Below are positions 16,696-36,507 of a stretch of DNA of 38,091 nt, one piece after another. The number at the start of each line of letters is the position of its first letter. Within the stretch, counting starts at the first letter, position 1. This stretch comes from Candidatus Lindowiibacteriota bacterium. GTDB lineage: Bacteria; Lindowbacteria; 2-12-FULL-62-27. The notes below the pieces were generated by a model, which worked only from the letters and a program-made list of their open reading frames with translations, was not told where the DNA came from and ran no database searches. Position numbers and translations under genes: made by a program. The stretch spans positions 3,845 to 41,935 of the forward strand of contig JAHFCY010000002.1 in the NCBI GenBank assembly GCA_023249255.1, written 5' to 3'.

Positions 16696-17060
16696 TTCCA
16701 GTTGATTCTCCCCTTATACTTCAGAACCTTCCTTGCATACTCAATAGCCTCTGTTACGGTGGCAAACGTGTCGTCGCCAGGGTCATGCCTCCACATGATC
16801 AGACTCGGTGTGTCGGACTCGATCCATCCCACAGCGCTGTCCGTCCCGTACGGCTGGATGAACGAGTAGGCGCGGACGATCCCCGTCGTGTCGGTGGTCA
16901 TATTGTTGTCGAGGACGATGCAGGGCAACCGCGTATTATCGTTCGGCACCGAATCGAACTCGTAGTGGCACTTGACGTATATAATGTCGGCCTGCGCCGA
17001 AATACCCATGCCCGCAATGCCCAAAACAACCAGCAACAAAACGGCTAAGGTTCGCTTCAT
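16692..17060 (-). CDS. Small secreted protein of unknown family (122 aa), translationally coupled to the giant gene
   Basis: Track ORF. Signal peptide MKRTLAVLLLVVLGIAGMGISAQA. GGAG lies about 6 nt upstream of the ATG. Its stop TGA overlaps the GTG start of the giant ORF. Paralog of the ORF at 17071-17418. Confidence 0.7.
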   Translation of the reverse strand: MKRTLAVLLLVVLGIAGMGISAQADIIYVKCHYEFDSVPNDNTRLPCIVLDNNMTTDTTGIVRAYSFIQPYGTDSAVGWIESDTPSLIMWRHDPGDDTFATVTEAIEYARKVLKYKGRINWK

Positions 17061-19745: not shown

Positions 19746-19846
19746 TTGGATTGGGCGGTTACGGCTGATCGGGAGTTTCTATTTTCAGGTTGACATAACC
19801 CCCCGCCTGTTGGAACATCAGCTTGGATATCCGCTTATCATTCATA

Positions 19847-22800
19847 ATGCATAAATCGGGGTGTGGGCTGGGGCGTCTTCTCCATATTATCGTACTCGTC
19901 TTGGGAGCCTGTATTCTCTTCGCGGGGCCACGCGAAGCGGGGGCGGCCTTTACCCGGGCCGACACCGAATCGGGCATCTTTGACGCCGCAAACGGCAACG
20001 GGGTCGCCTGGGCCGATTTCGACAACGACTCCGACCTCGACCTCTTCGTCGCGAATAGTTCCGGCCAGGCAGATTCCTTGTATCGCAACAACGGCAACGG
20101 CACATTCACGGAAGTTTCGGCGGCGGCCGGGATGACCGGAACGGCGGATGGATTCGGCGTCGCCTGGGGCGATTACGACAACGACGGCGACCTCGACCTC
20201 TTCGTCGCAACGAGCGGACAGGATATTCTCTATAAAAATAACGGCGGGGGCGTATTCACCGACGTGGCTGCGAGTGCAGGCATGACCGACGCCGTGGGTG
20301 GATTCGGGGCCGCATGGGCCGACTACGACGCCGACGGCGACCTCGACCTCTTCGTCGCCAACACCGGCACGGGTCAGGATTTCCTGTATCGCAACAACGG
20401 CAACGGCACATTTTCCAACGTGGCGACAAGCGCGGGCATGACCGACGCCGCAAACGGCGCGGTCGCCGCGTGGGCCGACTACGACAACGACGGCGACCTC
20501 GATCTCTATGTCGTCAACAGCGGAGGCGACCAGGACTTCCTATACAAAAACAACGGCTACGGCGCGTTCACGAGAGTCGATACCTCGGTCGGTATGATGG
20601 ATGCCTCAAACGGCGTGGGCGCGGCGTGGGGCGACTACGACGCCGACGGGGATCTCGATCTCTTCGTCGCCAATCAAACCGCCCAGGAGGATTTTCTCTA
20701 CCGCAATAACGGCGACGGAACCTTTACCCGCGTCGACACGACCGTTGGCATCAATGTCGCTTCTTATGGCTTGAGCCCCGCTTGGGGCGACTACGACAAT
20801 GACGGCGACCTCGATCTCTTTCTCACCAACGACGTCGCCCAGCAGGATATTCTCTATCGGAATAACGGCAACGGCGCGTTCACACGGGTCGACACGGCCC
20901 TGGGCATCATCGACGCGCTGGACGCCGGCGGTTCCGCGTGGGCCGACTACGACAACGACGGAGACCTCGACCTTTACGCCGCCAACTGGAACGGCCAGCA
21001 GGACTATCTGTACCGCAATGCCGGCCCGGTCCAGAACTGGATTAAAGTCATCACCCTCACTGATTCCAACGGCAACGCTCGTGAGTCGGACCCGGACTCG
21101 GACCGTCTTGACGTCGGAGCAAAAGTGGAAGTTGATTTGGACGGATCTGCGGATTTCGCCGTCGGCACGGGCCGTTACGCCTCTCTTCTCATCACCTCCG
21201 GGTCCGGCTTCGGCCGGTCGGCCATCCCCGCGCATCTGGGCGTAGGCAGCGCCACGACGGTAGATGTGCGCGTGACGTTTTCCGATGGAGACGTCTGGAT
21301 CGAAACCGGCGTCGCCGTCAACCAGACCATCACCGTCCGCGACCCGCCGAGATTTGTACAGTCGGCCCAATTGGCCGGCTTGAACGACGCCGCGTTCGCC
21401 TACGGCTCGGCTTGGGGCGATTACGACGGCGACGGCGACCTCGACCTCTTCGTCGCCAACGACGCCGGCGAGCAGGATTTTCTGTACCGCAACAACGGTA
21501 ACGGCACGTTCACCAACGTCGCCGTCGCAGCCGGCATGTCGGACGCGTCCTACGGGATCGGACCGGCGTGGGGCGATTACGACAACGACGGCGACCTCGA
21601 CCTCTTCGTCGCCAATTGGAGCGGCCAGCAGGATTTCCTCTACAAAAACAACGGCAACGGCACGTTCACCAGCGCGGCGGCAAGCGCCGGCATGACAGAC
21701 ACAGCGCACGGCTACGGCGCGGCGTGGGGAGACTACGACGGCGACGGCGACCTCGACCTCTTCGTCGCCAACGGCAGCACGACGGCGCAGGATTTCCTGT
21801 ATCGCAACAACGGCAGCGGCACCTTCACCAACGTGGGGATGACCGCGTTGGGGACGGACGCATCGGATGGCAAGGGCGCGGCGTGGGCCGATTACGACAA
21901 CGACGGCGACCTCGACCTTTTCGTTTGTAATTGGGGAGCTCAAAATTTCCTGTACCGAAACGACGGCGGCGGAGCCTTCACCAACGTCGCGGCAACTGTG
22001 GGTTTGCCCGAATCGTCGAACTCGACCTCGGCGGCCTGGGGCGATTTCGACGGCGACGGTGACTTCGACCTCTACGTCACCACATCCGGCCCGCAGGATT
22101 TGTTCTATCGCAACAACGGCAACGGCACCTTCACCCGCGCCGACACTACCGTCGGCTTCGTCGACGCCCATAACGGCCACGGCGCGGCCTGGGCCGATTT
22201 CGACGGCGACGGCGACCTCGACCTCTTCGTTTGCAATTACAGCAGTCTTCAGGACTTTTTATACCGCAACAACGGCAACGACTCGTTCACCAACGTCGCC
22301 AAGGCGCAGGGCGTGGACGCAGGCAATTTCGGCATCGGCCCGGCGTGGGCCGACTACGACAATGACGGTGACCTCGACCTCTTCGTAGCCGACGCCAATA
22401 ACGTTCAGGATTTCCTGTACAAAAATTCCCGCGTGAACGCCAAAAAGTGGCTCAAAGTCGTACCGCTCACCGATTCGAATCACGACGCCGAATTTTCGGA
22501 CGGCGAGCCGGACCGGCTGGCGATCGGCGCAAAAGTCGAGATCGATCTGAACGGCGGCGCCAATTTTGATACGGGTATCGGCAAATACACTTTCGCCGCC
22601 GTCGGCTCGGGACAGGGTCCAGGCCAGTCCGCCGCACCGCTTCACTTCATGCTCGACACCGTGGCGACCGTGGACGTGCGCGTCACCTTTCCCGACGGCG
22701 ACACGGCACTTGTCGCCAACGTCGCCGCCAATCAGACCATCACGGTCAAAGACCCGGCGCAGAAACTATTCATGGTATCGGGCAACCATCAGCTTGGCGC

Positions 22801-24451
22801 CGCGGGCGGGTCGCTTGCTTCGCCGCTGGTCGTCAAAGTCTTCCATCCCGTCGGCGGGGCGATTGCGGCGCCTGTGACGTTCAGCGTTTCCAACGCTCCG
22901 GACGGCGCGTCGGGATATTCTCCGGCGACGACGGTCATGTCCAATGCCGCCACCGGTCTGGCAAGTTTCAATTTCACCCTTGGCGCTAAAAACGGCGTCT
23001 ACCGGGTGACGGCGAGCGTCGGATCGCAGAGCGTGACGTTCACGGCCTACACGGATCGGGTGGACGTCGCGGCCGGCAAGTGGAAAATGGGCGGGCCTGT
23101 CAAAAAGCCGTCGGACGGAAGTCTGGCGGGCGTGATCGAGGACGACGGATTCGGCTCGCGCGAGACGACGGGCAAAGGAACTCTCACGAGCGGATACCGC
23201 ATCTATCGCTGGGATCCGACCGCCGGCGTCGATCCCAATTTCAGCCGGTTCAAAGTGCCGTCGATCATCGAGTCGGCCAAATCGTATTGGTTCAAAGCGG
23301 CCTCGGCCGGCGCGCTGGATGTGGACGGGACGGCGCTGACGGACACGTTTGAGCTTCGCCTTGATCAGGGATGGAACATGACGGCCAATCCGTTTGCGTT
23401 TTTCATCGACTGGGATTCGGACGTGCGATTCGAGACGTTCCCGGTGGCGGGCGAGGCGGTTGCGCCGAAGACTCCAAGTCAAGCGAGATCGGACAGCATC
23501 GCCGACGACGTGACGTTCTGGTTCGAGGACCCGCCGCCAGCGCCCGTCGGATATCGCTGGGGTCCGCGGTCCATTTCCTACGGCGCGCCGCTGGTGGCGA
23601 GTCTTCAGCTCAAACCCTGGGTCGGCTACTGGGTCTACGCGCACAGATCGTGCACGATGGTGTTTCATCCCAATCCGCGGGACCCTGCGTCGGCCGCGGT
23701 CGTGACACAGGCTCCGAGACTCCTCTCGGCCTCGTACGGCGCCGTTACCACGGGCGACACGGCCGAATGGACGATTCAATTGTCGCTCTCCGGCCTCCGG
23801 TCAACCGCTTCCGGTCTGCAAAAATATGAAGATGCGGAAAACTTCGTCGGCGTGCGCCGCTCGGGCATGACGGCGGTGCGCGACGCGCCGGCGTCGCCCG
23901 GCGGCGTGAATTTGAGCGTGTCGCGCCCCGGCGGGGAGGCCCCCCCATACGCGTTATTGTATTTGCCGATGAACCTCAACCGTCCGGCATCGAGCGGCGG
24001 CTGGTTTTCGTCGTGGGCCTTCGCGGACGAAGGGGAGCAAAGCCCCGCTTGGGAACTTTCGTCCTATTCGGCGGATGCGGGTGACGTGACGATCCTCGCC
24101 GACAACGTGCAGAACGTGCCTTCGGCCGTCCCGCTCCTCTTGCGGGACGAATCTACGGGGATCGTCACCGACCTTCGCCGATCACCTTCCTACTCCTACT
24201 TTTCCGCGCCGGGCGAGAGCCGCCGCCTCCTCCTGTCCGCCGGTACGGCGGGATCCGGCCCTTTGACGTCAATCAAATATCCAGCCGCATGTCTCATCAC
24301 GCGTCTTGTGGGCTCTGACCGAAAGTCTATCTTCGCCGCATTGCCCTCCGGCATTCGGCTGTATTTTCTGACGTGCCTTAGACAGGCCAGAGACGCTTTC
24401 CTACAATCGGCACTCGGCCGGCACGCGGTATGTCTCTATTACAAGTTGTAG
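19847..24451 (+). CDS. Secreted FG-GAP/VCBS-repeat protein: 2 x (seven-bladed propeller + ASPIC/UnbV-like domain) + Ig-like domain + ~470-aa unassigned C-terminal region
   Basis: Track ORF 19823..24451. I prefer the ATG at 19847 (MHKSGCGLGRLLHIIVLVLGACILFAG looks like a signal peptide). There are 14 repeats of the type G.AWGDYDNDGDLDLFVAN...QDFLYRNNGNGTFT.V. Segments NWIKVITLTDSNGN...QTITVRD (21035-21343) and KKWLKVVPLTDSNHD...QTITVKD (22442-22753) look like UnbV_ASPIC domains. Confidence 0.9.
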   Translation: MHKSGCGLGRLLHIIVLVLGACILFAGPREAGAAFTRADTESGIFDAANGNGVAWADFDNDSDLDLFVANSSGQADSLYRNNGNGTFTEVSAAAGMTGTADGFGVAWGDYDNDGDLDLFVATSGQDILYKNNGGGVFTDVAASAGMTDAVGGFGAAWADYDADGDLDLFVANTGTGQDFLYRNNGNGTFSNVATSAGMTDAANGAVAAWADYDNDGDLDLYVVNSGGDQDFLYKNNGYGAFTRVDTSVGMMDASNGVGAAWGDYDADGDLDLFVANQTAQEDFLYRNNGDGTFTRVDTTVGINVASYGLSPAWGDYDNDGDLDLFLTNDVAQQDILYRNNGNGAFTRVDTALGIIDALDAGGSAWADYDNDGDLDLYAANWNGQQDYLYRNAGPVQNWIKVITLTDSNGNARESDPDSDRLDVGAKVEVDLDGSADFAVGTGRYASLLITSGSGFGRSAIPAHLGVGSATTVDVRVTFSDGDVWIETGVAVNQTITVRDPPRFVQSAQLAGLNDAAFAYGSAWGDYDGDGDLDLFVANDAGEQDFLYRNNGNGTFTNVAVAAGMSDASYGIGPAWGDYDNDGDLDLFVANWSGQQDFLYKNNGNGTFTSAAASAGMTDTAHGYGAAWGDYDGDGDLDLFVANGSTTAQDFLYRNNGSGTFTNVGMTALGTDASDGKGAAWADYDNDGDLDLFVCNWGAQNFLYRNDGGGAFTNVAATVGLPESSNSTSAAWGDFDGDGDFDLYVTTSGPQDLFYRNNGNGTFTRADTTVGFVDAHNGHGAAWADFDGDGDLDLFVCNYSSLQDFLYRNNGNDSFTNVAKAQGVDAGNFGIGPAWADYDNDGDLDLFVADANNVQDFLYKNSRVNAKKWLKVVPLTDSNHDAEFSDGEPDRLAIGAKVEIDLNGGANFDTGIGKYTFAAVGSGQGPGQSAAPLHFMLDTVATVDVRVTFPDGDTALVANVAANQTITVKDPAQKLFMVSGNHQLGAAGGSLASPLVVKVFHPVGGAIAAPVTFSVSNAPDGASGYSPATTVMSNAATGLASFNFTLGAKNGVYRVTASVGSQSVTFTAYTDRVDVAAGKWKMGGPVKKPSDGSLAGVIEDDGFGSRETTGKGTLTSGYRIYRWDPTAGVDPNFSRFKVPSIIESAKSYWFKAASAGALDVDGTALTDTFELRLDQGWNMTANPFAFFIDWDSDVRFETFPVAGEAVAPKTPSQARSDSIADDVTFWFEDPPPAPVGYRWGPRSISYGAPLVASLQLKPWVGYWVYAHRSCTMVFHPNPRDPASAAVVTQAPRLLSASYGAVTTGDTAEWTIQLSLSGLRSTASGLQKYEDAENFVGVRRSGMTAVRDAPASPGGVNLSVSRPGGEAPPYALLYLPMNLNRPASSGGWFSSWAFADEGEQSPAWELSSYSADAGDVTILADNVQNVPSAVPLLLRDESTGIVTDLRRSPSYSYFSAPGESRRLLLSAGTAGSGPLTSIKYPAACLITRLVGSDRKSIFAALPSGIRLYFLTCLRQARDAFLQSALGRHAVCLYYKL
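19950..22415 (+). repeat. Coding tandem repeats (14 FG-GAP blades of ~50 aa each, in two blocks of seven)
   Basis: The DNA block ggcgactacgacaacgacggcgacctcgacctcttcgtcgcc recurs with small variations about every 150-160 nt. Confidence 0.85.
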
Positions 24452-25989: not shown

Positions 25990-26070
25990 ACATATACTTT
26001 TTTCGGAGTATCTGAAACGACCTTTCTTGCATTTGGACTACAGTATTCCCGAACTACAAAGGGGCGAAAT

Positions 26071-26329
26071 ATGTTGTTCTTTACTCGACCGACTCGCGTG
26101 GAGACCGAAATTCTTAGGATATTACGGGATGGCGATTTGACCGGATACGATATCTGTCGGAGACTTCAGGATGCAGATCCACATGTGCCCCTGACGGGAG
26201 AGGGTCTACTGTATCCCATCCTTTACCGCTTGGAGGATCGGAGGGTTGTTCATGCGGAATGGAGGATAAATGAGAGGTAGGAAACGCAGATACTACAAGT
26301 TGACAAACCCGCGGACTGAAAAAAATTAA
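26071..26329 (+). pseudogene. PadR-family transcriptional regulator, frameshifted
   Basis: The track ORF ends at WRINER*. Relative to copy 2 (gagagagggaggaaacgc), copy 1 reads gagaggtaggaaacgc, a 2-nt deletion. The conserved tail RKRRYYKLT continues in the +1 frame to a TAA at 26327-26329. Confidence 0.7.
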
Positions 26330-26428
26330 AACGCTGTAGCGATTTACGGGGCTTGGCGCTGTCTGTCCTGCCAAATCACTTCTCCTGTTGCATACGAGGG
26401 GGGCTATTCCAAATAGGAGGACGGACAA

Positions 26429-26467
26429 ATGGCCCCCACATTCTTTTGTGATAGTGTTTTTATTTAA
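26429..26467 (+). promoter_or_regulatory. Conserved 12-codon leader uORF (MAPTFFCDSVFI) with a perfect Shine-Dalgarno sequence, inside a conserved leader
   Basis: AGGAGGacggacaaATG. The length and the termination context tttatttaa are conserved in copy 2. GGGGGC...GCCCCC flanks the SD and ATG. Confidence 0.4.
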
Positions 26468-26493
26468 GGCCGACAGCGCATCTTGCCTATCCG

Positions 26494-26973
26494 ATGAGCA
26501 ACCTAACGGTCCCTATCCACGTGTTCTTGAGAAATTGCGTCTCCGAACTATCTCCCGCCGTACAGGACGCGATCATTTCACCGGAGATATTGAATGGCGA
26601 GCACCCCCCGTCCGTAGAGGAACTCGTGACGCGGTTCCCTCCGATGTGTGTTGTGCTCGCATTTCCAAATCACGATAAAGGATATTTGCTCCGTGTTGCG
26701 AAACGCCCGAAGGCGGGCGGGTTAAATCTGGATATCGAACCTCTGCCGGACACTATCATTTTGTTCGGCCTGACGGATGAGCACAAGCAAGCGGTCCATT
26801 TTCTGGCGCAGAAATGCAGAGCGATGAATCAACCCGCGCGGCAGGATCGTGCGCCCTGGCCCCCCAAGAAATTTATCCCGAAAAAGAAAAACATCCTCAA
26901 GAGTGGCGGGCACATCTGTTACAGGCCCGGGCACATTGAAACGGATCGACGAGCTTCTGCGCGTGCCGGCTGA
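26494..26973 (+). CDS. Hypothetical protein, C-terminally truncated paralog of 34471-35034
   Basis: MSNLTVPIHVFLRNCVSELSPAV aligns with MSRRTVPIHMFLKNCVSELSPAV. Similarity ends near 26915, and the tail SGGHICYRPGHIETDRRASARAG is read-through into unrelated DNA. Confidence 0.45.
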   Translation: MSNLTVPIHVFLRNCVSELSPAVQDAIISPEILNGEHPPSVEELVTRFPPMCVVLAFPNHDKGYLLRVAKRPKAGGLNLDIEPLPDTIILFGLTDEHKQAVHFLAQKCRAMNQPARQDRAPWPPKKFIPKKKNILKSGGHICYRPGHIETDRRASARAG

Positions 26974-27030
26974 GATTCGATTTCTGTCGGTTGAGCCGCT
27001 CTTAGCGCCGGTTGATTTGTCACCATGGTG
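26900..27030 (+). pseudogene. Internal fragment of a DUF5131 (phage Gp37/Gp68-like) gene
   Basis: In the frame of track ORF 26849..27376, GTSVTGPGTLKRIDELLRVPAEIRFLSVEPLLAPVDLSPW matches the ..G.S.E....Ri..L...p..vrFlS.EPLLgp..L core of that family. No N-terminal or C-terminal part of the family is present. Confidence 0.5.
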
Positions 27031-27082
27031 CCCCTTGGAATATGGATTGACACTGCATCCCCCCGAAAATACTCTGCCGCCT

Positions 27083-27376
27083 ATGAGTCGGTACGGATAC
27101 TATGTCGAGGGCTACGAAGACATCTCCGTTGTTGGCTGGGACCCGCCGTTAAGAACGCATTACGCGCAAATATCACACAACAACGATCCGACCCCCGATG
27201 ACGAACGGCCGACAAGATGTTGGATTGGCCAATTAGCTTATGAATGCCCGACTGTGGAGGAATTGGACGGCAAACTGAAAGGGCACGGGTTACAGGGGCT
27301 CCCGCAACGAGAGCATCCCGGCGCGAAGGAAGACTTGTGGGATCTCCTGCGTCTGGACAAGAAGATGAGCCGATAG
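27083..27376 (+). CDS. Hypothetical protein (97 aa if it starts at the internal ATG); may be only the tail of a chimeric ORF
   Basis: Same frame as track ORF 26849..27376. MSRYGYYVEGYEDISVVGWDPPLRTHYAQI... reads like real protein, but I do not recognise the family. Confidence 0.3.
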   Translation: MSRYGYYVEGYEDISVVGWDPPLRTHYAQISHNNDPTPDDERPTRCWIGQLAYECPTVEELDGKLKGHGLQGLPQREHPGAKEDLWDLLRLDKKMSR

Positions 27377-27390
27377 GGGCCGGGTTTCAC

Positions 27391-27918
27391 ATGGGCAATA
27401 GATGGAAATTTGCGGAATCAAAATCGTCCAAAAAATTCAAAGAACCGACGCTGGAAGAGAAGGCCGCGTTGGAGCTTTACATCTTGGTTCTACAGCACGG
27501 CGATAACCCATCCGTATTACCTCAAGAGCAGAAATCAAAATTTGATGTGGCCGACGAACTCGTGGAATGCTCCATTCGAAGGTGGATTCGATCTCGCCCT
27601 GTGGCAGATGAGGGTTGTCGGGATTGGCGTAAGAAATTGCACGAATCTCTACGCATCCTACATCATCGCCTGTATCTCGATTCTTACGTTGAACTCACAA
27701 CTATAGGGAGGATGATTTCTGCGCCGGCAAATCGAGGCAAGGAACCCGATGAAGAAGCAAAGCAGAAAATCCGATATATCGGTCAACGTCTCTGGGATGC
27801 CGGCAGTATAGAAATGATGCAGGCGGTATTTTATCCCGTCGTCAACAAACTCCGTGTTCCAGATTTTAATGTCCATCTTTCCTACATCTGGTCTGGTATC
27901 GGAACTTGGAGATACTGA
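27391..27918 (+). CDS. Hypothetical protein (175 aa), ends 1 nt before the ftsZ-like ATG
   Basis: Internal ATG of track ORF 27244..27918, 14 nt after the preceding stop. Ends ...LSYIWSGIGTWRY. Family not recognised. Confidence 0.6.
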   Translation: MGNRWKFAESKSSKKFKEPTLEEKAALELYILVLQHGDNPSVLPQEQKSKFDVADELVECSIRRWIRSRPVADEGCRDWRKKLHESLRILHHRLYLDSYVELTTIGRMISAPANRGKEPDEEAKQKIRYIGQRLWDAGSIEMMQAVFYPVVNKLRVPDFNVHLSYIWSGIGTWRY

Positions 27919-27919
27919 T

Positions 27920-29338
27920 ATGGCAGAACCCGAGGGAGAAAAGGACCTGAAAAGTGAGAAAGAAGCGGGGGCGGACCGCCTTGACCTGAAAGTGATTGGG
28001 ATCGGTGGTGCCGGTGGTAATGCAATAAACCGTATGATTGATGTTGGAATTAGTGGTGTTGAATTCGTAGCTATGAATACGGATTCCCAAGTCTTGAAAA
28101 GCTGCCGAGCGCCGAACAGACTGCTCCTCGGCGAGAACCTGACGGGGGGACTCGGCGCCGGCGGAAAGCCCGAGATTGGTCGAAAGGCGGCGAATGAAGA
28201 TCGAGATGGCATTCTGGGTATGTTAGAGGGAGCCAAAATGATATTTCTCACCGCTGGTATGGGCGGAGGTACAGGAACGGGGGCAGCACCTGTGGTTGCT
28301 GAACTGTCCAAAGAACTGGGCATTCTGACGGTTGGTATCGTCACAAAGCCGTTTGCGTTCGAAGGCCCGGTGCGGCTCAGGAACGCCGAGGATGGCATCA
28401 TGGAACTCAAGGAGCACGTCGATACCCTCATCACTATTCCGAACGACAAGATCCTCGAAGTTTGCACAGAGAGGCTGTTCATCAACGATGCTTTTGCTCG
28501 CGTAGACGACACGCTCCGGCAGGCCATCCAGGGAGTTTCGTCCATCATTGCCGACGAGGGCGTCATCAACGTCGATTTTGCAGATATTAGGACTGTCATG
28601 GGCGAACGTGGAGAGGCGCTCATGGGCATAGGTCTAGCATCGGGCGAAAACCGTGCGAAAGTGGCGGTAATGCAGGCAATGCGCAATCCCCTTACGGAGA
28701 ATTTATCGATCACAGGAGCCAAGTCGGTTCTCCTCTGGATCCGCGGGGGGGTTGATTTCGAAATGCGGGAATTTAGCCAGATCGCGACGATGGTTCAAGA
28801 GGAGGCTGGTGGCGGAACCAACATAATCACCGGTTACAGTATCGACCAATCTCTAGTTGACCGTATTCAGGTTATCTTGATTGCATCGGGCATTCGAAAG
28901 TCGGCTGTAAAACAGAAGACCTATGCAAAGGACGAGGTGTCACAAATGCCTGCCATATCGTCCCCCGCTTGGAGAGTTGTGGCAGGCGGACGGATTGTTA
29001 GAACCGTCGTTTCTGGGATTGAAGGGAATCTGGTACTTCAAGAGGAGCAAGAGGAACTGGATATTCCCAGTTTCCTTCGGAGGGCAAAGCCAGGAAATAA
29101 GGGCTCGATAGCAGTAAGTACGTCTTATGACCTTGCAGATTTCCGGCGCGATCACGTCTGGATAATGGAAAATCGCCAGAGTCTGCCTGAGCGATACGAT
29201 GGGCAGTGGATAGCCGTCAAAAACGAGAAAGTCATTGCCCACTTCCAAGATTTGGACGCGTTGCTCTCCGCACTACCCAATGCCGCACATACTTGCATTG
29301 AACATCTCACGCGGGATGAGCCAGACGTGGTCCAATGA
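27920..29338 (+). CDS. ftsZ: FtsZ homolog (472 aa) with an additional C-terminal DUF5678-like domain
   Basis: LKVIGIGGAGGNAINRM, NTDSQVL, GGGTGTGAAPVVAELSKELGILTVGIVTKPFAFEG, and INVDFADIRTVM (T7 loop). GGAG lies about 8 nt upstream of the ATG at 27920. The conserved C-terminal peptide DIPSFLRR is at aa 381-388 (nt 29060-29083) and is not terminal. Confidence 0.92.
   Translation: MAEPEGEKDLKSEKEAGADRLDLKVIGIGGAGGNAINRMIDVGISGVEFVAMNTDSQVLKSCRAPNRLLLGENLTGGLGAGGKPEIGRKAANEDRDGILGMLEGAKMIFLTAGMGGGTGTGAAPVVAELSKELGILTVGIVTKPFAFEGPVRLRNAEDGIMELKEHVDTLITIPNDKILEVCTERLFINDAFARVDDTLRQAIQGVSSIIADEGVINVDFADIRTVMGERGEALMGIGLASGENRAKVAVMQAMRNPLTENLSITGAKSVLLWIRGGVDFEMREFSQIATMVQEEAGGGTNIITGYSIDQSLVDRIQVILIASGIRKSAVKQKTYAKDEVSQMPAISSPAWRVVAGGRIVRTVVSGIEGNLVLQEEQEELDIPSFLRRAKPGNKGSIAVSTSYDLADFRRDHVWIMENRQSLPERYDGQWIAVKNEKVIAHFQDLDALLSALPNAAHTCIEHLTRDEPDVVQ
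29084..29335 (+). other. 84-aa extension after the FtsZ C-terminal peptide; DUF5678-like
   Basis: DHVWIMENRQSLPERYDGQWIAVKNEKVIAHFQDLDALLSAL fits the ..Y.GkWVA[IV]..g.V[IV]...d...l pattern of small DUF5678-type proteins. The family name is from memory. Confidence 0.5.
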
Positions 29339-29769
29339 AACTTCCTGGTTTCTATCAAGGGGCCAAACCTTGTGTCTTCGCCGTGGTGAGGGGCGGCAAT
29401 TCTCTGCATTCGTTTTCGGGCTATGTTCGGTTTGTGATAGATACGGCGGCGGTTCGGACAACACTTTTGGATGCTGATGCGCGGCGTCTGCGAATACCCG
29501 AGGAACTACTAAACCCGAGGGATAAGCTCGTTGGGCTTGGCGGTGCCGTCAGAACCTTTCTTATAGATAAGGCAGAGTTAATATTCGAATCCGCCGATGA
29601 AGATTTTTCCGTGTCCATGGCAATTTGTGTGACGCGCCACGATCTGGATGGAATGCCAACCGATGATAGAGCCAAGGTCGCCGCGCTTGCCTCGGTTCTT
29701 GGCTTGGACTTCATCAACAAGTTCAAACTGCTCTGTGAATATAGAAAAGACGTTGTGCGAATGGAATAG
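29335..29769 (+). CDS. Retropepsin-like (clan AA aspartic protease fold) protein with a DTA in place of the catalytic DTG
   Basis: The start overlaps the ftsZ stop (ATGA). GYVRFVIDTAAVRTTLLDADARRLRI and SVLGLDFINKFKLLCEY match the v.vDTGA..t.l....a..lgl and ilGmDfL..f.l..dy blocks. D-T-A-A is encoded at 29440-29451. Confidence 0.6.
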   Translation: MKLPGFYQGAKPCVFAVVRGGNSLHSFSGYVRFVIDTAAVRTTLLDADARRLRIPEELLNPRDKLVGLGGAVRTFLIDKAELIFESADEDFSVSMAICVTRHDLDGMPTDDRAKVAALASVLGLDFINKFKLLCEYRKDVVRME

Positions 29770-29834
29770 AGTGATGTCTCTGTTGCGTGTTAATCACTTG
29801 GTCGGCAGTCATTAACTTGAGGAGGGTTTCGACC

Positions 29835-30443
29835 ATGCTCGACAAGATAAAGGAATGGGATCCGAAGTTGGGGCAAATAATCAGTTGGTTTCTATTTTTA
29901 GTTACAATTTCGTCATTCCATTATTGCGTCGGGTATTACACGCCTTTTGGAATTGCTATTGGTAATTTCTTCTCCCCGTCGGACTACTGTTTCAATAAGT
30001 TGACATCCGTGGTCGGTCAGAACGTGGTTGTATTCATCGTGCTCCTTGTCGCCGCGATTCTTTGTGATGCTTTGAGGAAGTGGCACCCGTCTTTTCTTAA
30101 CGAAGGAACCTTCACTGCGGCCCGCTTGTTACTCCTTATATTGGCCGCCATGGGATTGGCGATGTTCTATTTATATGAAGGGCACGAGGCCGGCGTGGGC
30201 GCGAAAATGCAGCCCCATTCCGTTATTCGTTTGACTTCTCAGGATACACCGCTGAATGCAGTCATCATTGGAGCTTCGAGTAACTACCTATATCTATTGG
30301 AAGTTTCGGATTCTCATACCATCGTAATCCCCCTCTCCTATGTGATGCGCATTGAGACACCGCAAACATTCGTTGTAGCCGCTCGCGGGCGGGACGCAAG
30401 GGGAATGACCGATACTGGTCCGACGCGTTCTACGAATGAGTGA
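29835..30443 (+). CDS. Integral membrane protein (3-4 TM) with a small C-terminal soluble domain
   Basis: ATG at 29835, preceded by GAGGAGGG about 8 nt upstream (the track ORF starts at a GTG at 29787). TM segments IISWFLFLVTISSF, VVVFIVLLVAAILC and LLLLILAAMGLAMFYL. Confidence 0.65.
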   Translation: MLDKIKEWDPKLGQIISWFLFLVTISSFHYCVGYYTPFGIAIGNFFSPSDYCFNKLTSVVGQNVVVFIVLLVAAILCDALRKWHPSFLNEGTFTAARLLLLILAAMGLAMFYLYEGHEAGVGAKMQPHSVIRLTSQDTPLNAVIIGASSNYLYLLEVSDSHTIVIPLSYVMRIETPQTFVVAARGRDARGMTDTGPTRSTNE

Positions 30444-30660
30444 ATTCTGTTTTGACCGTTACGGAAATACTGCCAACCGGAAGATCTGAATGTGGCGGCG
30501 GTCAAATTGTCCGACGAGACCGAACTCTGCGAGGGTTGCGGGCAGTTCAAACAAATCGTCGAGGAAGTGGCCGAACCGAGGAAGAGGGGTGATCACAATA
30601 GATTCGATTTGGAACGCCGCCCCCTACTCAATCGGATGATCCCATGGGTGTGCTGGATTT

Positions 30661-31185
30661 ATGAATGATTCTGAAATTCGTTCCTACATCGAGCGCGACC
30701 TCAATTCTCTCCTCGACGAATTCTGCAATTCGGACAGATGGTTTTTGCACCGTCAGATATTGATGGCACGGCGAGATCGGAAGCCAGAAGACATGCTTAC
30801 GTATCTTACTTTCCAGACAAAGCGTCGGTCTAACTGGCGTGATGTATTCCCGGATTGGTTCACGGCCAACGCCGCACGTATCCATGAACTCGTGTGTGTG
30901 AAATGGCAGTATTGCATCAAACGGGAGGAAGGCCGCTTCAACGACCAAGTATCCTTCGTGGCCAGCCTTTCGGATGTGGTCGCGGTTCTTACCATGGGTG
31001 TTCCCCCGGTACTTCTTGCAACCATTCTACTCAAGCTTGGCCTTGATAAATTCTGTGGGTGTACCGACACGGCGACCGGCGCTGTCACTGAATACTCTTG
31101 TGGCCATATTACCAAGTCCGGCAGAGCGTGTTCCCGGCGTGTTGGGTCCAGGGGGATACACTGTTTCCAGCACAAAAAATCGTGA
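30661..31185 (+). CDS. Hypothetical protein with a Cys/His-rich C-terminal tail (possible zinc-binding)
   Basis: Track ORF. Tail CGCTDTATGAVTEYSCGHITKSGRACSRRVGSRGIHCFQH. Confidence 0.5.
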   Translation: MNDSEIRSYIERDLNSLLDEFCNSDRWFLHRQILMARRDRKPEDMLTYLTFQTKRRSNWRDVFPDWFTANAARIHELVCVKWQYCIKREEGRFNDQVSFVASLSDVVAVLTMGVPPVLLATILLKLGLDKFCGCTDTATGAVTEYSCGHITKSGRACSRRVGSRGIHCFQHKKS

Positions 31186-31258
31186 GGATGCCAACATGGG
31201 TGGCGGAAGCAATAAGGTAGAAATGGCTCCTACCCTTGACCTCCGGCAGTGATATTGT

Positions 31259-32113
31259 ATGAAATTGACATATCTATTCGACACATCGGCAATGCGTGGG
31301 GCATCGGTTCAGACGATCGAAAATTTGCAACGGCGCAATTATTACCTGTGCGTGTCTCCGTACTCATTTTGGGAAACGCTTTGCCATCTTGACGAAGGCG
31401 ATTTCGGCCGTTCAAAGGGCCAATTGCTGAAATTCGACCGCGTTGGAATTCTGGACGACCCCCGCGCGGAAATTGAAGCCCCTATATGCAACGCCGATCC
31501 CGATCTCGAAGACCGGTCGCCCGACGGCCATCTGATTAAAGCGGTACTTGTTTCGTTGAGGACATCAGTATCTCTTCGTGCCTTTTACTCTTCCAATATA
31601 CAGGATTCGAAGGGCAGAATGCGTCAGATTTCCGGAATCGCGGACAGGGTGCGTGCCGCCTTGGACGAGGAAGAGAGAAGATACATCAGAATGACCAATG
31701 ATATTGTTCAGGCGCTGGCCTCCGGGACTGTTGCGCACGAAACTGACAGACATCGTCACCGGGCCATATTAGATTTAGTAGAAGGATATGTGATTCAGTT
31801 ATCCCAGCGTGGCGCCTCCGAAATAGGGCTACGAGCTCGTCTCATCAATGATTCTTACATTCACTATGCCTACATTTTTATTCGGGCGTTGAAACTCTTT
31901 CAGTTCCGTAATACTCAACTTTCCAGAAATGATTATGAGGACGGTAGAATATGCCTCCATTTAAAATTGAATGTGCCATACTGTCTTGTCACGGCCGATA
32001 AAAGACAGAAGGAAACGATTGAGGAAATAATTGCGATTGTACGCCGACTCGACGATCCCCAATTCCAAATTATCCCCACGGTCACACATTTAGATTCACT
32101 ACGAGGAGCATGA
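31259..32113 (+). CDS. PIN-like nuclease-fold protein with a large internal insert (284 aa)
   Basis: N-terminal YLFDTSA (first acidic residue of the PIN fold), then SPYSFWETL, and near the C-terminus NDYEDGRICLHL...YCLVTADKRQ (distal acidic residues in a ..lvT.D context). Recognised by pattern only. Confidence 0.5.
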   Translation: MKLTYLFDTSAMRGASVQTIENLQRRNYYLCVSPYSFWETLCHLDEGDFGRSKGQLLKFDRVGILDDPRAEIEAPICNADPDLEDRSPDGHLIKAVLVSLRTSVSLRAFYSSNIQDSKGRMRQISGIADRVRAALDEEERRYIRMTNDIVQALASGTVAHETDRHRHRAILDLVEGYVIQLSQRGASEIGLRARLINDSYIHYAYIFIRALKLFQFRNTQLSRNDYEDGRICLHLKLNVPYCLVTADKRQKETIEEIIAIVRRLDDPQFQIIPTVTHLDSLRGA

Positions 32114-32246
32114 TCAACGTGCCGACGCTTCCTTTTTTACGTGGTTACGCATGGAAAACGAGATAAACTGGGGATTGTTATCCTTAATACCATACATAAG
32201 AGAGGTCGCGGCCCGGTGGTCATCCTGACCTCCGGCATATTACATC

Positions 32247-32507
32247 TCACTTCAACTCCCTCAGCCCCAATTCATCCAGCACCCACGAAATGTCGATGGT
32301 AAATCCCTTGTCCTTGAACTGCCCCTCAAGCCCGTGGAGATGGTCCTTCATGAGTTCGATCAGTCGTGGCCGCATCTTGGGATCCTCTATGAAAAAAGAA
32401 GTCAAGGGTAGACTTTCCCCGTCAGCCGAAGGCTGAAGATGCGCTGCTTCGGCGGATATGATGTGTGGATCAGACGAAACGTTTTGACACCTCGTGGATT
32501 GTCCCAT
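32247..32507 (-). CDS. Hypothetical ORF (86 aa), possibly the 3' remnant of a gene interrupted by the IS
   Basis: Track ORF. The C-terminal two thirds read like real protein (FFIEDPKMRPRLIELMKDHLHGLEGQFKDKGFTIDISWVLDELGL). The 5' end abuts the structured IS flank. Confidence 0.3.
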   Translation of the reverse strand: MGQSTRCQNVSSDPHIISAEAAHLQPSADGESLPLTSFFIEDPKMRPRLIELMKDHLHGLEGQFKDKGFTIDISWVLDELGLRELK

Positions 32508-32804: not shown

Positions 32805-33869
32805 TCAGACTCGTTGAGTATGTGTCAGGAATCGATCCGGATCGAACGCCTCCTTTCGCTTCCACATCGCCCAGACCGTTGTGAGGATTTTGCGTTGAGT
32901 CGTCAGGCGCGCGTGGACGGGATTGAGGTTGCGTTTGCGCAGGTCGAGATAATAGTGCGCGACGGCATTTTTGCCGGAGTTACGTTTCATCGCCCCGATG
33001 AATGCCCGGCGCGTCGCGGATTTCAGTACGCCGAGTCCCTGCCGGGAGAGATGCCGGCGACCGAGCTGCTTGCCGGCGGACGACCGATCAACGACGCCCA
33101 GCCGGCCATAGCTACAGAGTTGGGATTTGTGTTGGAAGCGATCCGGCGTTTGGATGTAGGCCGAAAACTCGCAGGCGGTGATGATGCCGATGCCGGGGAT
33201 GGTCCGGAACCGGCCGACCTCCTCGAAGGCACGGCTCATCTTATGGACGTGGCTGAGAATCTCCTTGCGAGCGGCCATGAGTTCATCCAACACGCGATAC
33301 CATGCGCGGAGGCGCACCTGAGCCACGTCGGGAAGAGCCTCCATCGCCCCTTCGCGTCGCTGCGGGTGATAGATCTGCGTGGCCGACGGGTCGACGCCGT
33401 ATTGGTTGTAAGATTTTCGGACGCGGTTCTTCATTTTGACGATTTCACGAACAATCGTCTCGTATTGCTGGACGGCTCGCCGGAATGCGACACGTGCGGG
33501 GTCGATGGAGTGATAGACCTCGACGATGGCGCCGATGCGGAAAAGGTTTGCAAGTTTGTAGGCGTCGACGGGGTCGCTTTTGGTGTCCGCCTCGGCGATG
33601 AGGCGGTTGCGTCTGGGGTCGACGGAGATGATGCGGTCTACCAGGGGCGTCAACTGTTCGACGAACCATTGCGCCATCGCCGATTCCTCGATGACGAGGG
33701 TCACCGGCGCCGGAAATACGCCGATGGCTTTCTTGAGCGCATCAATTTTGGTGGGCAAGTCGCGGAACCGGCGAATCAACGTGCCGCCCCTGTCCATTCC
33801 GCACAAGTCACACGTTCTGAGATGGCCGTCCATTCCGATGATGGTTCCTGTTGCCTTGTCTATCGTCAT
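32805..33869 (-). CDS. IS110-family (DEDD) transposase/recombinase
   Basis: ATG at 33869 preceded by AGGAGG. N-terminal IIGMDGH...LVIEES...DPVDAYKLA (DEDD domain). C-terminal FRTIPGIGIITACEFSAYIQTPDRFQHKSQLCSYGRLGVVDRSSAGK (Transposase_20-type helix-hairpin-helix). Confidence 0.9.
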   Translation of the reverse strand: MTIDKATGTIIGMDGHLRTCDLCGMDRGGTLIRRFRDLPTKIDALKKAIGVFPAPVTLVIEESAMAQWFVEQLTPLVDRIISVDPRRNRLIAEADTKSDPVDAYKLANLFRIGAIVEVYHSIDPARVAFRRAVQQYETIVREIVKMKNRVRKSYNQYGVDPSATQIYHPQRREGAMEALPDVAQVRLRAWYRVLDELMAARKEILSHVHKMSRAFEEVGRFRTIPGIGIITACEFSAYIQTPDRFQHKSQLCSYGRLGVVDRSSAGKQLGRRHLSRQGLGVLKSATRRAFIGAMKRNSGKNAVAHYYLDLRKRNLNPVHARLTTQRKILTTVWAMWKRKEAFDPDRFLTHTQRV

Positions 33870-34048
33870 TGCGGACCTCCTGTTGTTGGGATATGGTGGC
33901 TCTTCAAATGAGCACCGGCACACACTATCTCAACAGCATATCCGCTTTTCTTATTACCCCGGCCGCCTGACGCGGCGTCCAGTTATCGATCGCCGGCACC
34001 GGCTCATCCATAAATTTGGTGAACACCCAAACCAGAGAGGGGCAAAAT

Positions 34049-34318
34049 ATGCTGTTCTTTGCTCGACCGACTCGCGTGGAGACCGAAATTTTAAGGATAT
34101 TAGAGGATGGGGATTTGACGGGATATGAAATCTGTCGGAGACTCCGGGAGGTGGATCCCTATGCGCTCATGATGGGGGAGGGTCTGCTGTATCCAATCCT
34201 TCAGCACATGGTGCATCGGAAGTTTATTTATGGAGAATGGAGAATAAATGAGAGAGGGAGGAAACGCAGATACTACAAGCTGACAAAATGCGGGCTAGAA
34301 AAAATTAAAACGCCGTAG
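34049..34318 (+). CDS. PadR-family transcriptional regulator (89 aa)
   Basis: MLFFARPTRVETEILRILEDGDLTGYEICRRL...GEGLLYPILQHMVHRKFIYGEW....RKRRYYKLTKCG is the PadR winged-helix pattern. The ATG at 34049 corresponds to the copy-1 start. Confidence 0.8.
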   Translation: MLFFARPTRVETEILRILEDGDLTGYEICRRLREVDPYALMMGEGLLYPILQHMVHRKFIYGEWRINERGRKRRYYKLTKCGLEKIKTP

Positions 34319-34405
34319 CAACTTACGGGTCTTGGCACTGTCTGTCCTCCCGGATCACTTCTCCTGTTGCATAGAGGGGGCTATTCCAAATAGGAGGACG
34401 GACAA

Positions 34406-34444
34406 ATGGCCCCCGCATTATTTTTTGATCGTGTTTTTATTTAA
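34406..34444 (+). promoter_or_regulatory. Conserved 12-codon leader uORF (MAPALFFDRVFI) with a perfect Shine-Dalgarno sequence
   Basis: AGGAGGacggacaaATG ... tttatttaa. Same length and position as in copy 1. Confidence 0.4.
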
Positions 34445-34470
34445 CGCCGACAGCGCATGTTGCCGATCTG

Positions 34471-35034
34471 ATGAGCCGCCGAACGGTCCCAATCCACATG
34501 TTCTTGAAAAATTGCGTCTCCGAGCTATCTCCCGCAGTCGAGGCGTTGGCCATTTCGCCGAAGATATTGAATGGCGAGCGCCCCCCGACCGTCGCGGAAC
34601 TCGTGACGAGATTCCCTCCGATGCGCGTTGTTCTCGAATTTCCAGATCGGACCGGAAGATATTTCCTCCGCCTCATCCAGCGCTTGGAGGCACTTGGGCC
34701 AGAAATTCCGAAGGGTAAGATGATGAGAGAGGCTGCGCTTGTTGTTGACGCCATTGATGACCGCGCGGATACGATTATTTTGTCCGGCATGGCGGATGAA
34801 TATAAGGTGGCGATCCGTGCTTTGACGCAGAAATGTCGAACGATGACTCAGTCCGCACGCAAAGATCGCGCGCCCCAGCGCCCCAAGAAATTTGCCCCGA
34901 AAAAGAAAGACATCCTCAAAGGCGGCGGTCAAGTAAATCCAGAGGCGAACAAGAGGGCGGACATCATCCGATCCCGCGCCGCGCGAACGGGACGTTTCGA
35001 AAAGTTGTTTGACGACGACGATTCGGCGGCGTGA
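34471..35034 (+). CDS. Hypothetical protein (187 aa) with a basic tail, partner of PadR
   Basis: Track ORF. Full-length paralog of 26494-26973. There is no SD upstream of its ATG, which lies 26 nt after the uORF stop. Confidence 0.55.
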   Translation: MSRRTVPIHMFLKNCVSELSPAVEALAISPKILNGERPPTVAELVTRFPPMRVVLEFPDRTGRYFLRLIQRLEALGPEIPKGKMMREAALVVDAIDDRADTIILSGMADEYKVAIRALTQKCRTMTQSARKDRAPQRPKKFAPKKKDILKGGGQVNPEANKRADIIRSRAARTGRFEKLFDDDDSAA

Positions 35035-35238
35035 CGGGAGTGTCGAAATAAAATACACGTCCACTTACGAATGAAACTTGGTGCCAAAATAGTGCCAAGT
35101 CTGCGGTTAAATCCGCTGAATTCGCGTGAGTGCCCGTGAAGCGGACGGGACGGTATAATTTTTCTGTAACTGGTTGGAAGTTGCGTAAATACATGTATAA
35201 AGAGTGGGATGCGAGCGGGATGTATCAGAGGGTAGGTA

Positions 35239-35282
35239 TCGGCTTAGAAGGCCGATGCTCTATCCAACTGAGCTACGGGCGC
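35239..35282 (-). tRNA. 5' fragment (positions 1-43) of tRNA-Arg(UCU); T arm and 3' acceptor strand are absent
   Basis: The minus strand reads GCGCCCG-UA-GCUC-AGUUGGAUA-GAGC-A-UCGGC-CUUCUAA-GCCGA, with anticodon UCU at 35246-35248. The following sequence, UACCUACCCUCUGAUACAUCCCGCUCGC, has no GTTCGAAT-like T loop and no CGGGCGC. Confidence 0.7.
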
Positions 35283-35490: not shown

Positions 35491-36507
35491 GTGTCTGACT
35501 ACGTACACCGAGCCAAGATCATAGGCAATTGCTTGAGCATAGTAAAGAAGTCGGCCTATAAAAAAACGGCGCTCACAAAAGACGAATTATTAAAACTGAC
35601 CGAATCCTTTTTTTCTTCGATACGCCCGAATACGCAGCGAGGCTACAACAACGCAATCAGACAGTATTGCGAGTTTGTAGGAGTAAGAAGTCCGTCCGAA
35701 CTCATCCGCCTGCTGTTTCAAGTCGGCCCCGGGAAAGCTCATTGCATGTTTTTGGATTTCAGAAATCATTTGCAAAAAAAATGTCTGGCACCGGGTACCA
35801 TCAACAGCCACATCAGCGCTATTCGACAACTTGTGAATTTTGCCAACACGGTTGGAGTAATCAACTGGAAAGTATCCCTCAAGCGCCTGCCATATCAGTT
35901 GCTACGAGATACGCGAGGGCCTGGGCGGGAAGGCATGATCAAAATGCTTGCTGAAGCGGCCAAACTGCCCGGTCTAAAAGCAATTCGAGCAATAGCTCTT
36001 CTACGCGTCTTCTGGGACTTGGGATTTCGGAGGGGGGAGGTTGAGCATTTGGACGTATCGGACGTTGATCTTGATGACGGACATGTTTGGGTCCTCGGCA
36101 AGATGAGGACGCAGAAGGAGAAAGTAACCCTTCCGCCGGAAACCATCGAGGCACTCAAAGCATGGTTGGGTGATCGGCGATCTGGACCGCTTTTTATGAA
36201 CCTGGTGCGTGGTGCGTATCAGGGAAAACGGATGAGTGATGACAGTATCTACGCTCTGATCCGCGCACTGGGTAAGGCGTGCGGAATCAGAGTTCATCCG
36301 CACGGGATTAGGCATGCGGCGATAACGGATGTCCTCGATTTGACCAACGGAGACGTCCGGTCAGCTCAGAGATTTGCACGACATAAGACCTTGGACATGG
36401 TCCTGATATATGATGACAACCGAAAAGATATTGGCGGGGTTGCATCGAAGCTGATTGCTAGACACTTGCCCACGCCTCCCATTCCGCCGGCACCCACTCC
36501 GGCCTGA
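35491..36507 (+). CDS. Tyrosine recombinase/integrase (338 aa)
   Basis: GTG start with GAGGGAGG upstream. Catalytic pattern GFRRGEV (Arg I), HPHGIRHAA (H-x-x-R), and RHKTLDMVLIYDD (His/Tyr). Confidence 0.9.
   Translation: MSDYVHRAKIIGNCLSIVKKSAYKKTALTKDELLKLTESFFSSIRPNTQRGYNNAIRQYCEFVGVRSPSELIRLLFQVGPGKAHCMFLDFRNHLQKKCLAPGTINSHISAIRQLVNFANTVGVINWKVSLKRLPYQLLRDTRGPGREGMIKMLAEAAKLPGLKAIRAIALLRVFWDLGFRRGEVEHLDVSDVDLDDGHVWVLGKMRTQKEKVTLPPETIEALKAWLGDRRSGPLFMNLVRGAYQGKRMSDDSIYALIRALGKACGIRVHPHGIRHAAITDVLDLTNGDVRSAQRFARHKTLDMVLIYDDNRKDIGGVASKLIARHLPTPPIPPAPTPA

Follow-up and report, generated by a model that had tools for sequence, protein, structure and literature searches.

Prophage Kil, DicB and the toxin CbtA are small division inhibitors that are encoded by mobile elements and bind FtsZ. 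Accessory copies of FtsZ itself on mobile DNA are rare. One of them, FtsZm from the magnetosome island of Magnetospirillum, is C-terminally truncated, with neither linker nor docking peptide, and serves magnetosome biomineralisation. Here we describe an ftsZ gene from a Candidatus Lindowiibacteriota bacterium (GenBank assembly GCA_023249255.1, contig JAHFCY010000002.1). The stretch of DNA that was analysed, hereafter the window, comprises 38,091 nucleotides (contig positions 3,845 to 41,935) and carries, in an integrated and partly decayed mobile island, an FtsZ that continues in frame into a DUF5678-type domain and is followed, with an overlap of four nucleotides, by the gene of a retropepsin-like protein, P0121 (Table 1). 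FtsZm is likewise an accessory FtsZ paralogue on a genomic island beside a generic ftsZ, and it has been reported (reference 66 of PMC7017999) as likely interacting with the generic FtsZ homologue. Unlike FtsZm, the island FtsZ is extended at its C-terminus by a foreign domain that has its own partner gene. The outcome that we propose below, a mobile element modulating the Z ring of its host, resembles that of Kil, DicB and CbtA. These three proteins are unrelated in sequence to the fusion, however, and here the modified subunit of FtsZ would itself come from the element. The literature searched describes no FtsZ that carries a folded foreign domain past its docking peptide and is accompanied by the partner gene of that domain, in agreement with an earlier note on this DNA, made from the sequence without database searches, which knew of no system with this architecture. 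That note had also proposed that an adaptor/protease-like pair was grafted onto a polymerising FtsZ in a mobile element, a proposal now supported by the order and overlap of the cassette genes, the homology of the tail and the island setting.

By the curated equivalog model and the Pfam cut-offs, the product of the fusion gene is a bona fide FtsZ. It scored 392.2 bits with the NCBIfam ftsZ equivalog TIGR00065 (cut-off 295.2), 176 bits with Tubulin (PF00091, 1.2e-51; cut-off 33) and 83 bits with FtsZ_C (PF12327, 1.9e-23; cut-off 27). The map of open reading frames (ORFs) places all the sequence hallmarks that the earlier note had listed within this product, namely the G-box GGGTGTG, NTDSQVL and the T7 synergy loop NVDFADIRTVM (NxDxxD). 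The same map bears out its observation that the docking peptide DIPSFLRR is internal and is followed by 84 further residues. The island FtsZ shares with canonical FtsZ the GTPase core with its T7 loop, the FtsZ_C domain, a disordered linker and the docking peptide. Its identity to the division-cluster FtsZs of the Lindowbacteria type is 60-72% over the whole protein and 68-78% over the core. It differs from them in its position off the division and cell-wall (dcw) gene cluster, in its island-like composition, in its replaced N-terminal peptide and in the folded domain past the docking peptide. The ten closest relatives (399-416 aa, 60-72% identity) end 4-5 residues past the docking peptide, with EIPSFLRRAQGQ or similar, and after these ten the identity falls to about 50%. 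At columns with at least 90% conservation across 40 other FtsZs, the core has just three deviations, L44I, A195V and V223I, all of them conservative, compared with six and seven at the same columns in the canonical proteins P0010 and P0011. As these deviations are conservative and fewer than those of canonical orthologues, the island FtsZ is no decaying gene, and from its sequence the FtsZ half looks functional.

In a neighbour-joining tree, the island FtsZ was placed among the FtsZs of the Lindowbacteria type, inside the clade formed by P0002-P0011 and L005 (Candidatus Lindowbacteria). One relative has a core that is 100% identical to an FtsZ from a Candidatus Lindowbacteria genome. Core identity of the island FtsZ to members of the clade is 73-78%, falling to 68% for the deep-branching P0011; the canonical P0002-P0010 share 78-92% core identity with one another. 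The N-terminal peptide NYEEHExLKIRP, common to all ten canonical relatives, is replaced in the island FtsZ, which suggests that it has evolved independently for some time. The window contains no ftsA, ftsQ or mur gene according to the ORF map and Pfam, so that the gene does lie outside a dcw context, as had been noted. A canonical counterpart was found elsewhere: P0010 is encoded in a murB-ddl-ftsA-ftsZ cluster from the same ENA sample as the window contig, and P0005 likewise stands in a division-cluster context. The Logan contig with P0010 (L001) comes from run SRR14366766, as does contig L094, which is 100% identical to window positions 29160-32412. The earlier note had called for a search for a second ftsZ in a dcw cluster; this sample and this run do contain such a gene, from the same clade as the island ftsZ, and it may belong to the same genome. 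The canonical locus has a GC content of 0.606 and a GC content at third codon positions (GC3) of 0.74, matching the non-island genes of the window, of which the FG-GAP gene has a GC3 of 0.77. The corresponding GC3 values are 0.56 for the core of the island ftsZ, 0.535 for its tail and 0.52 for the P0121 gene. The simplest reading of these sequence comparisons is that the gene encodes an accessory FtsZ, resident for some time in lower-GC mobile DNA, beside the canonical ftsZ of the same organism.

The tail that follows the docking peptide belongs to DUF5678, as the earlier note had suspected from its core pattern. With PF18929, the tail alone scored 27.9 bits and the whole protein 25.3 bits, both above the gathering score of 23.2 (model positions 4-28 of 49). 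A local hidden Markov model (HMM) built from 49 of the small partner proteins described below gave 70.9 bits for the tail (E ~1e-21, model positions 7-70 of 76), and the tail shares 48% identity across 63 residues with one such 76-aa partner, encoded on contig L009. The AlphaFold model of the tail has a mean confidence (predicted local distance difference test, pLDDT) of 83.6. Its last ten residues or so are of low confidence, and the C-terminal end is therefore probably flexible. All 77 free-standing partners examined end in a hydrophobic tripeptide (MVL in 41, MIL in 9, FIL in 8, LIL in 8 and others in the remainder); this tripeptide is absent from the fusion tail, which ends in DVVQ. A structure search with the tail model gave no significant match in the PDB, a profile search of the DUF5678-type domain against PDB sequences gave no match, and a word-index homologue search with the tail alone returned no homologue.

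Several observations at the junction between the two halves indicate that the fusion is genuine. The codon that aligns with the start methionine of the free-standing small proteins is ATA (29108-29110), and from the docking peptide up to an ATG within the first helix there is no in-frame ATG, GTG or TTG; the DUF5678 part can therefore not be a separate gene, whatever stands upstream. Unbroken frames of at least 5570 codons and of 1542 codons on the same contig show that indel errors are rare. The identical fusion protein occurs in records of two lengths, 41,935 and 33,083 bp. The independent Logan contig L094 has its left end within the domain, at 29160, which leaves the junction outside it. 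To the left of that position the first ~12 residues of the DUF5678 domain already continue the FtsZ frame, and a wrong join at 29160 would therefore not make the fusion. GC3 is continuous over the junction. We conclude that the island gene is a genuine in-frame gene fusion. It is also a singleton: among the best 120 FtsZ matches, no PF18929 domain was found other than that of the fusion protein itself, and the 90% cluster of this protein has one member. Conservation of the fusion as such can consequently not be shown.

The DUF5678-type tail and P0121 correspond to the two halves of a gene pair that is found well beyond this island. When P0121 was searched exhaustively with HMMER against 1.84 billion representative proteins, 98 homologues were found, mostly free-standing and 130-155 aa long; a word-index homologue search had found nothing beyond P0121. 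A pattern-limited scan of metagenomes, built from ten closer sequences, returned 222 relatives, and 80 loci from it were retained. In these loci, a DUF5678-type ORF lies directly upstream of 77 of 83 retropepsin-like genes, and three of the six exceptions are at contig ends. PF18929 was matched by 31 of 34 sampled partners, and the overlap between the two genes was exactly four nucleotides in all 43 distinct pairs measured. The closest relative of P0121, P0123, has its start overlapped by 4 nt by the 76-aa gene on L009, whose DUF5678 score is 23.0 bits. We therefore define the cassette as a DUF5678-type protein of about 76 aa followed, with a 4-nt overlap, by a clan AA retropepsin-like protein of about 145 aa. 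The recurrent order and the constant overlap show that the association is real and that the ATGA in the window, at which the earlier note had seen the ftsZ stop overlap the next ORF, is the ancestral cassette junction. The pairing of DUF5678-like with retropepsin-like genes, which that note mentioned, thus holds for the P0121 family. Some small partners deviate from the common form: an ORF on L069 (1506-2147) encodes 214 aa with two DUF5678 stretches, and P0233, a 140-aa cluster member, has a 64-aa N-terminal extension. One member of the small-protein clusters is named as from a Bathyarchaeota archaeon. No cassette was found by the scan in IMG/VR viral contigs, plasmid records queried by tblastn with the tail, P0121 and two relatives likewise yielded none, and neither half was matched by PADLOC. 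With PHROGs, the operon proteins gave no match except for the DUF5131 fragment. The literature searched held nothing relevant on prokaryotic DUF5678 / retropepsin-like cassettes.

The neighbourhood of the cassette is reminiscent of toxin-antitoxin loci. Among 122 flanking ORFs from 21 distinct cassette loci, we identified PIN (four), PIN_3 (two), MazE (three), Polbeta (four), HEPN (two), HepT (two) and DUF5618 (two) families, as well as DUF433 and IS200. DUF433 occurs in antitoxin-like partners of PIN-like proteins. The cassette resembles type II toxin-antitoxin modules in its small first gene, its 4-nt overlap, its co-directional genes, its PIN, MazE, HEPN-MNT, HepT and DUF433 neighbours, and in a small protein with a flexible C-terminal tail that is sometimes fused N-terminally to DUF433. 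It differs from them in that its proteins stand outside the known toxin and antitoxin families and that the 76-aa protein has no DNA-binding domain. An example of the DUF433 fusion precedes P0124, a member of the P0121 family: it is a 167-aa protein (L010 4462-4965; also on L011-L013) that combines an N-terminal DUF433 with a C-terminal DUF5678-type domain (59.5 bits) and lacks the hydrophobic end, and a HicB-like gene adjoins it. It sets a precedent for the N-terminal fusion of a small cassette protein to another domain. From neighbourhood, gene order, overlap and the DUF433 fusion, the best available reading is that the two proteins would form a toxin-antitoxin-like binding pair.

P0121 itself is predicted to have a retropepsin fold. 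Its AlphaFold model (monomer) has a pLDDT of 95 and a predicted template-modelling score (pTM) of 0.88, and the top Foldseek matches in the PDB are all retropepsins, namely ApRick and the proteases of Rous sarcoma virus, equine infectious anaemia virus, feline immunodeficiency virus (FIV) and human immunodeficiency virus, at probability 1.0 and with a target-normalised TM score of up to 0.68. A profile of the family searched against solved structures independently returned ApRick (8.5e-7) and also FIV protease, so that the retropepsin-like character assigned to this ORF in the earlier note is confirmed by both routes. The fold and the family motifs, FLxDTGASxT, GxGG and LPSLLGRDxLN in the alignment, are those of the clan AA proteases (TIGR02281, Asp_protease_2 and Rickettsia ApRick/APRc, 5c9b/5c9d/5c9f), with which the family shares D-T-G-A, GxGG and LLGRD. 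Unlike these proteases, P0121 reads DTA and remains below every curated threshold: it scored 17.7 against 24.3 and 19.1 against 28.2 with Pfam (PF13650/PF13975 families), and 13.9 against 57.95 with TIGR02281 (clan_AA_DTGA). Its relatives come closer, with TIGR02281 matched by 26 of 40 family members at E <= 0.01 and P0126 and P0127 above the PF13650 threshold. Members of the P0121 family are soluble proteins of ~145 aa encoded directly after an overlapping DUF5678 gene, an arrangement undescribed in the literature searched. One protein from the exhaustive search, P0125, is 2221 aa long and has 12 separate P0121-like stretches, a tandem array of retropepsin-like domains.

The change in the active-site triplet is rare in the family. 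Asp36 is invariant, the glycine at position 38 is at least 90% conserved, about 95% of relatives have D-T/S-G, and DTA occurs in two of ~77 full-length members, P0121 and P0124. The word degenerate, which the earlier note had used for P0121, is thus right as a description of the sequence. P0121 still has catalytic Asp36, as well as Thr37 and the flap motif GxGG. Four contigs, each from a different sample, encode P0124 without any difference, which shows that DTA variants can be stable and are not necessarily decaying. In both P0121 and P0124, a DTA protein is partnered by a small protein that has been fused N-terminally and has lost its tail; anecdotally, the two independent cases would fit a shift from a catalytic or inhibitory pair towards a plain binding pair. 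A candidate mark of a degenerate subfamily shared with P0124, the replacement of R by L in LLGRD, was rejected, as 10 of 77 members have GLD and P0121 is not the nearest neighbour of P0124.

The DNA around the ftsZ operon fits an integrated genomic island, given its deviating composition, its integrase and its insertion sequence (IS) element. From ~24.4 kb onward the GC content drops from about 0.60-0.64 to 0.47-0.54, the range for comparison with the island being 0.58-0.64, and GC3 of the island genes is 0.47-0.57, compared with 0.77 in the flanking part. Pfam, Rfam and the GC profile together bear out the neighbourhood sketched in the earlier note, with unknown ORFs, an IS110 element, PadR repeats, a tRNA fragment and an integrase in lower-GC DNA. 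Just upstream of the operon, the DUF5131 fragment is a remnant of phage-like DNA. The operon and the IS110 element lie between two direct repeats that are 77-86% identical to each other, an arrangement suggestive of a composite element or of two related ones in tandem; ORF159 in the left copy is 57% identical to the ORF187 region in the right. The repeats found are paralogous blocks of ~880 nt, with no short attachment sites among them. The tRNA gene match is weak; the sequence is probably a remnant and may derive from an old attachment site. A 27-nt inverted repeat (27900-27926 / 35887-35913, 78% complementary) was treated as chance, and a promoter and terminator scan found sites no commoner than in shuffled sequence.

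Two further ORFs flank the fusion gene and P0121. The spacing reported in the earlier note was found as described for both, a single nucleotide between the upstream ORF and the ftsZ ATG and 65 nt, with a strong Shine-Dalgarno sequence, before the membrane ORF. The gene status of the 175-aa upstream ORF is uncertain: it had no match in Pfam, NCBIfam, PADLOC, PHROGs or the PDB and is omitted from the ENA gene calls, and its GC content at the three codon positions (0.55/0.39/0.47) is compatible with coding. The membrane ORF is called as a gene in both the ENA and the Logan records and had no family match in Pfam, PADLOC or PHROGs. Neither has a homologue in any fetched cassette locus; they are no conserved cassette parts, and their link to ftsZ is by spacing alone. 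Elsewhere in the window, a 284-aa ORF (31259-32113, plus strand) starts with MKLTYLFDTSAM and has LVTADKR near its end, which by eye look like the first and last acidic motifs of PIN-domain nucleases, and it had no Pfam or PDB match. A stop-free frame of at least 5570 codons on the minus strand (4-16713) runs off the left end of the window and represents a giant gene. The left 17 kb had been considered as a prophage of small genes; this was rejected, as the 26 plus-strand ORFs concerned have no Pfam or PHROG match and appear to be antisense artefacts of the giant gene. The FG-GAP repeat protein (19823-24451, plus strand) is 1542 aa long, with many tandem units of 156 nt (52 aa) at ~19950-22450.

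Table 1. Features of the ftsZ-DUF5678 operon and of the surrounding island, in window coordinates.
Feature	Position	Strand	Details
Left direct repeat	26048-26912		~880 nt; truncated PadR (69 aa, 26071-26280) and ORF159
DUF5131 fragment	26849-27376	+	Phage Gp37/Gp68-type; model positions 132-173 of 243; phrog_2045
Putative upstream ORF	27391-27918	+	175 aa; TGA (27916-27918), one base (t), then ftsZ ATG
FtsZ-DUF5678 fusion gene	27920-29338	+	472 aa; Pfam Tubulin, FtsZ_C, DUF5678; NCBIfam TIGR00065
FtsZ polymerisation core	27986-28894	+	GTPase domain aa 23-182, FtsZ_C domain aa 231-325 (Pfam)
Docking peptide DIPSFLRR	29060-29083	+	aa 381-388; conserved C-terminal peptide, internal in the fusion
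Junction linker AKPGNKGSIAVSTS	29084-29125	+	Between docking peptide and DUF5678-type domain
DUF5678-type domain	29126-29317	+	Homologous to the small cassette protein; partner HMM, PF18929
Degenerate tail end EPDVVQ	29318-29335	+	TGA stop at 29336-29338
Retropepsin-like partner P0121	29335-29769	+	144 aa; start overlaps ftsZ stop as ATGA (29335-29338)
Active-site triplet D-T-A	29440-29448	+	aa 36-38, codons gat acg gcg, in place of D-T/S-G
Membrane ORF	29835-30443	+	202 aa; ATG 65 nt past the 29769 stop, behind GAGGAGGG
IS110-family transposase	32805-33923	-	Pfam DEDD_Tnp_IS110, Transposase_20
Right direct repeat	34026-34931		Intact PadR (100 aa, 34016-34318) and ORF187 (34471-35034), both running past the repeat
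tRNA-like sequence	35210-35282	-	Rfam RF00005, 33.3 bits vs 29; no ARAGORN call; between right repeat and integrase
Tyrosine integrase	35491-36507	+	Pfam Phage_integrase 4.3e-20

In sum, the first gene of the cassette has been joined in frame to the C-terminus of an accessory FtsZ that keeps an intact polymerisation core, linker and docking peptide, and the second gene has been kept downstream. For its function, the earlier note had offered a guard or decoy for phage FtsZ inhibitors, a conditional division blocker, or a cytomotive or partition device. We hypothesize that the pair tethers the partner to FtsZ for the control of division; we give this reading as a whole about an even chance of being correct. 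In the free-standing cassette, the small protein would bind its retropepsin-like partner as in a toxin-antitoxin-type pair, and its flexible hydrophobic C-terminal tail would probably add to this binding. The island FtsZ is expected to polymerise, probably together with the FtsZ of the host, for which FtsZm offers a precedent, and the fusion tail would recruit P0121 to the filaments. Retropepsin-fold proteins are homodimers, and P0121 is probably a non-catalytic, dimeric partner; as a presumed homodimer it could link the tails of two FtsZ subunits or cover the docking peptide, which is only ~16 residues upstream. In both cases the bundling of the Z ring or its anchoring to the membrane would be altered. 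Given the DTA triplet and the lost hydrophobic end, the pair would probably act as a tether rather than as a protease with its substrate or inhibitor. The net effect would be control of division by the element, speculatively most likely inhibition.

Several points weigh against this hypothesis. The fusion is a singleton in an island that carries several gene fragments, and relaxed selection would equally produce the changes of the catalytic glycine and of the tail end. Binding between the tail and P0121 is inferred, the DUF5678 fold resembles nothing in the PDB, and the toxin-antitoxin idea draws on gene order and neighbourhood, with no PADLOC match for either half. Catalysis may have been retained despite DTA. 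The contig with the canonical ftsZ and the window may also come from different genomes.

The first of these points lead to a neutral account, which we regard as unlikely and yet a serious contender: a captured ftsZ lost its stop codon beside a cassette in a degrading island, and the recent fusion has no selected function. The uniqueness of the fusion is as expected from such an accident, and so is the loss of family-invariant features in both halves of the cassette, from DTG to DTA in one and from the hydrophobic tripeptide to VVQ in the other, in the company of a truncated PadR, a DUF5131 fragment, a tRNA remnant and an IS110 element. The conservation of the FtsZ core could be a legacy of a recent donor that could not do without the gene, and the GC3 of 0.56 could likewise reflect the donor. 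However, all 472 and 144 codons are open, and the core deviates less at conserved columns than canonical orthologues do. The tail retains its 70.9 bits with the partner HMM, the P0121 model its high confidence and the two genes their 4-nt coupling. The replaced N-terminal peptide of the clade suggests some time of independent evolution, and the recurrence of the other DTA member in four samples also speaks against simple decay.

A protease that is active despite DTA appears improbable. Such an enzyme would cleave the fusion or the FtsZ of the host; it might, for instance, free a normal FtsZ by a cut in the junction linker, or trim FtsZ tails, and the division ring would thus be subject to regulated proteolysis. 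Its intact fold, with Asp36, Thr37 and the GxGG flap retained, would allow this, and a cytoplasmic retropepsin-like bacterial protease that regulates a ribosome modification is on record (PMC11957791). Against it stand the strong conservation of the glycine that P0121 and one other of ~77 members have exchanged for alanine, and the fact that the partners of both DTA members are without the conserved C-terminal tail, which fits a lost catalytic or inhibitory relation. A reading that we consider doubtful, and slightly more so than an active enzyme, is that the cassette may be a new class of toxin-antitoxin or abortive-infection system, in which the hydrophobic C-terminal tail of the small protein would restrain a cytoplasmic retropepsin-like protease. 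The FtsZ of the island would then be a decoy or sensor subunit that responds when the Z ring is disturbed, be it by phage inhibitors of FtsZ, upon excision of the element or otherwise, with the readout through the tethered partner.

There is little to suggest that the island gene is the only, relocated ftsZ of the organism, and we consider this very improbable. The protein passes the TIGR00065 cut-off and keeps its docking peptide; yet it is placed amid an integrase, an IS element and repeats, in DNA of island-like composition with no division-cluster genes nearby, and the same sample and run hold a canonical murB-ddl-ftsA-ftsZ locus of the same clade, whose GC content matches that of the non-island genes. 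Least probable of all is an artefact, in which the apparent fusion arose from an overlooked stop codon, a frameshift or the joining of unrelated sequences: the sequence is metagenome-assembled, the junction lies outside L094 and both other frames are closed by stop codons within 30 nt of the docking peptide, but the DUF5678 part has ATA in place of a start of its own, and a frameshift upstream would still leave it short of being a gene by itself, its first residues are in frame left of the L094 start, the giant frame on the contig is unbroken, GC3 is continuous and two records share the protein.

The fusion, if functional, would allow a mobile element to act on the division ring of its host from within the polymer. 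If the decoy reading were true instead, the locus would represent a guard built from a copy of the very cytoskeletal protein that it guards. The fusions with FtsZ and with DUF433 give a first hint that DUF5678 functions as a partner-binding module, and the widespread DUF5678 / retropepsin-like cassette is noteworthy apart from the FtsZ fusion.

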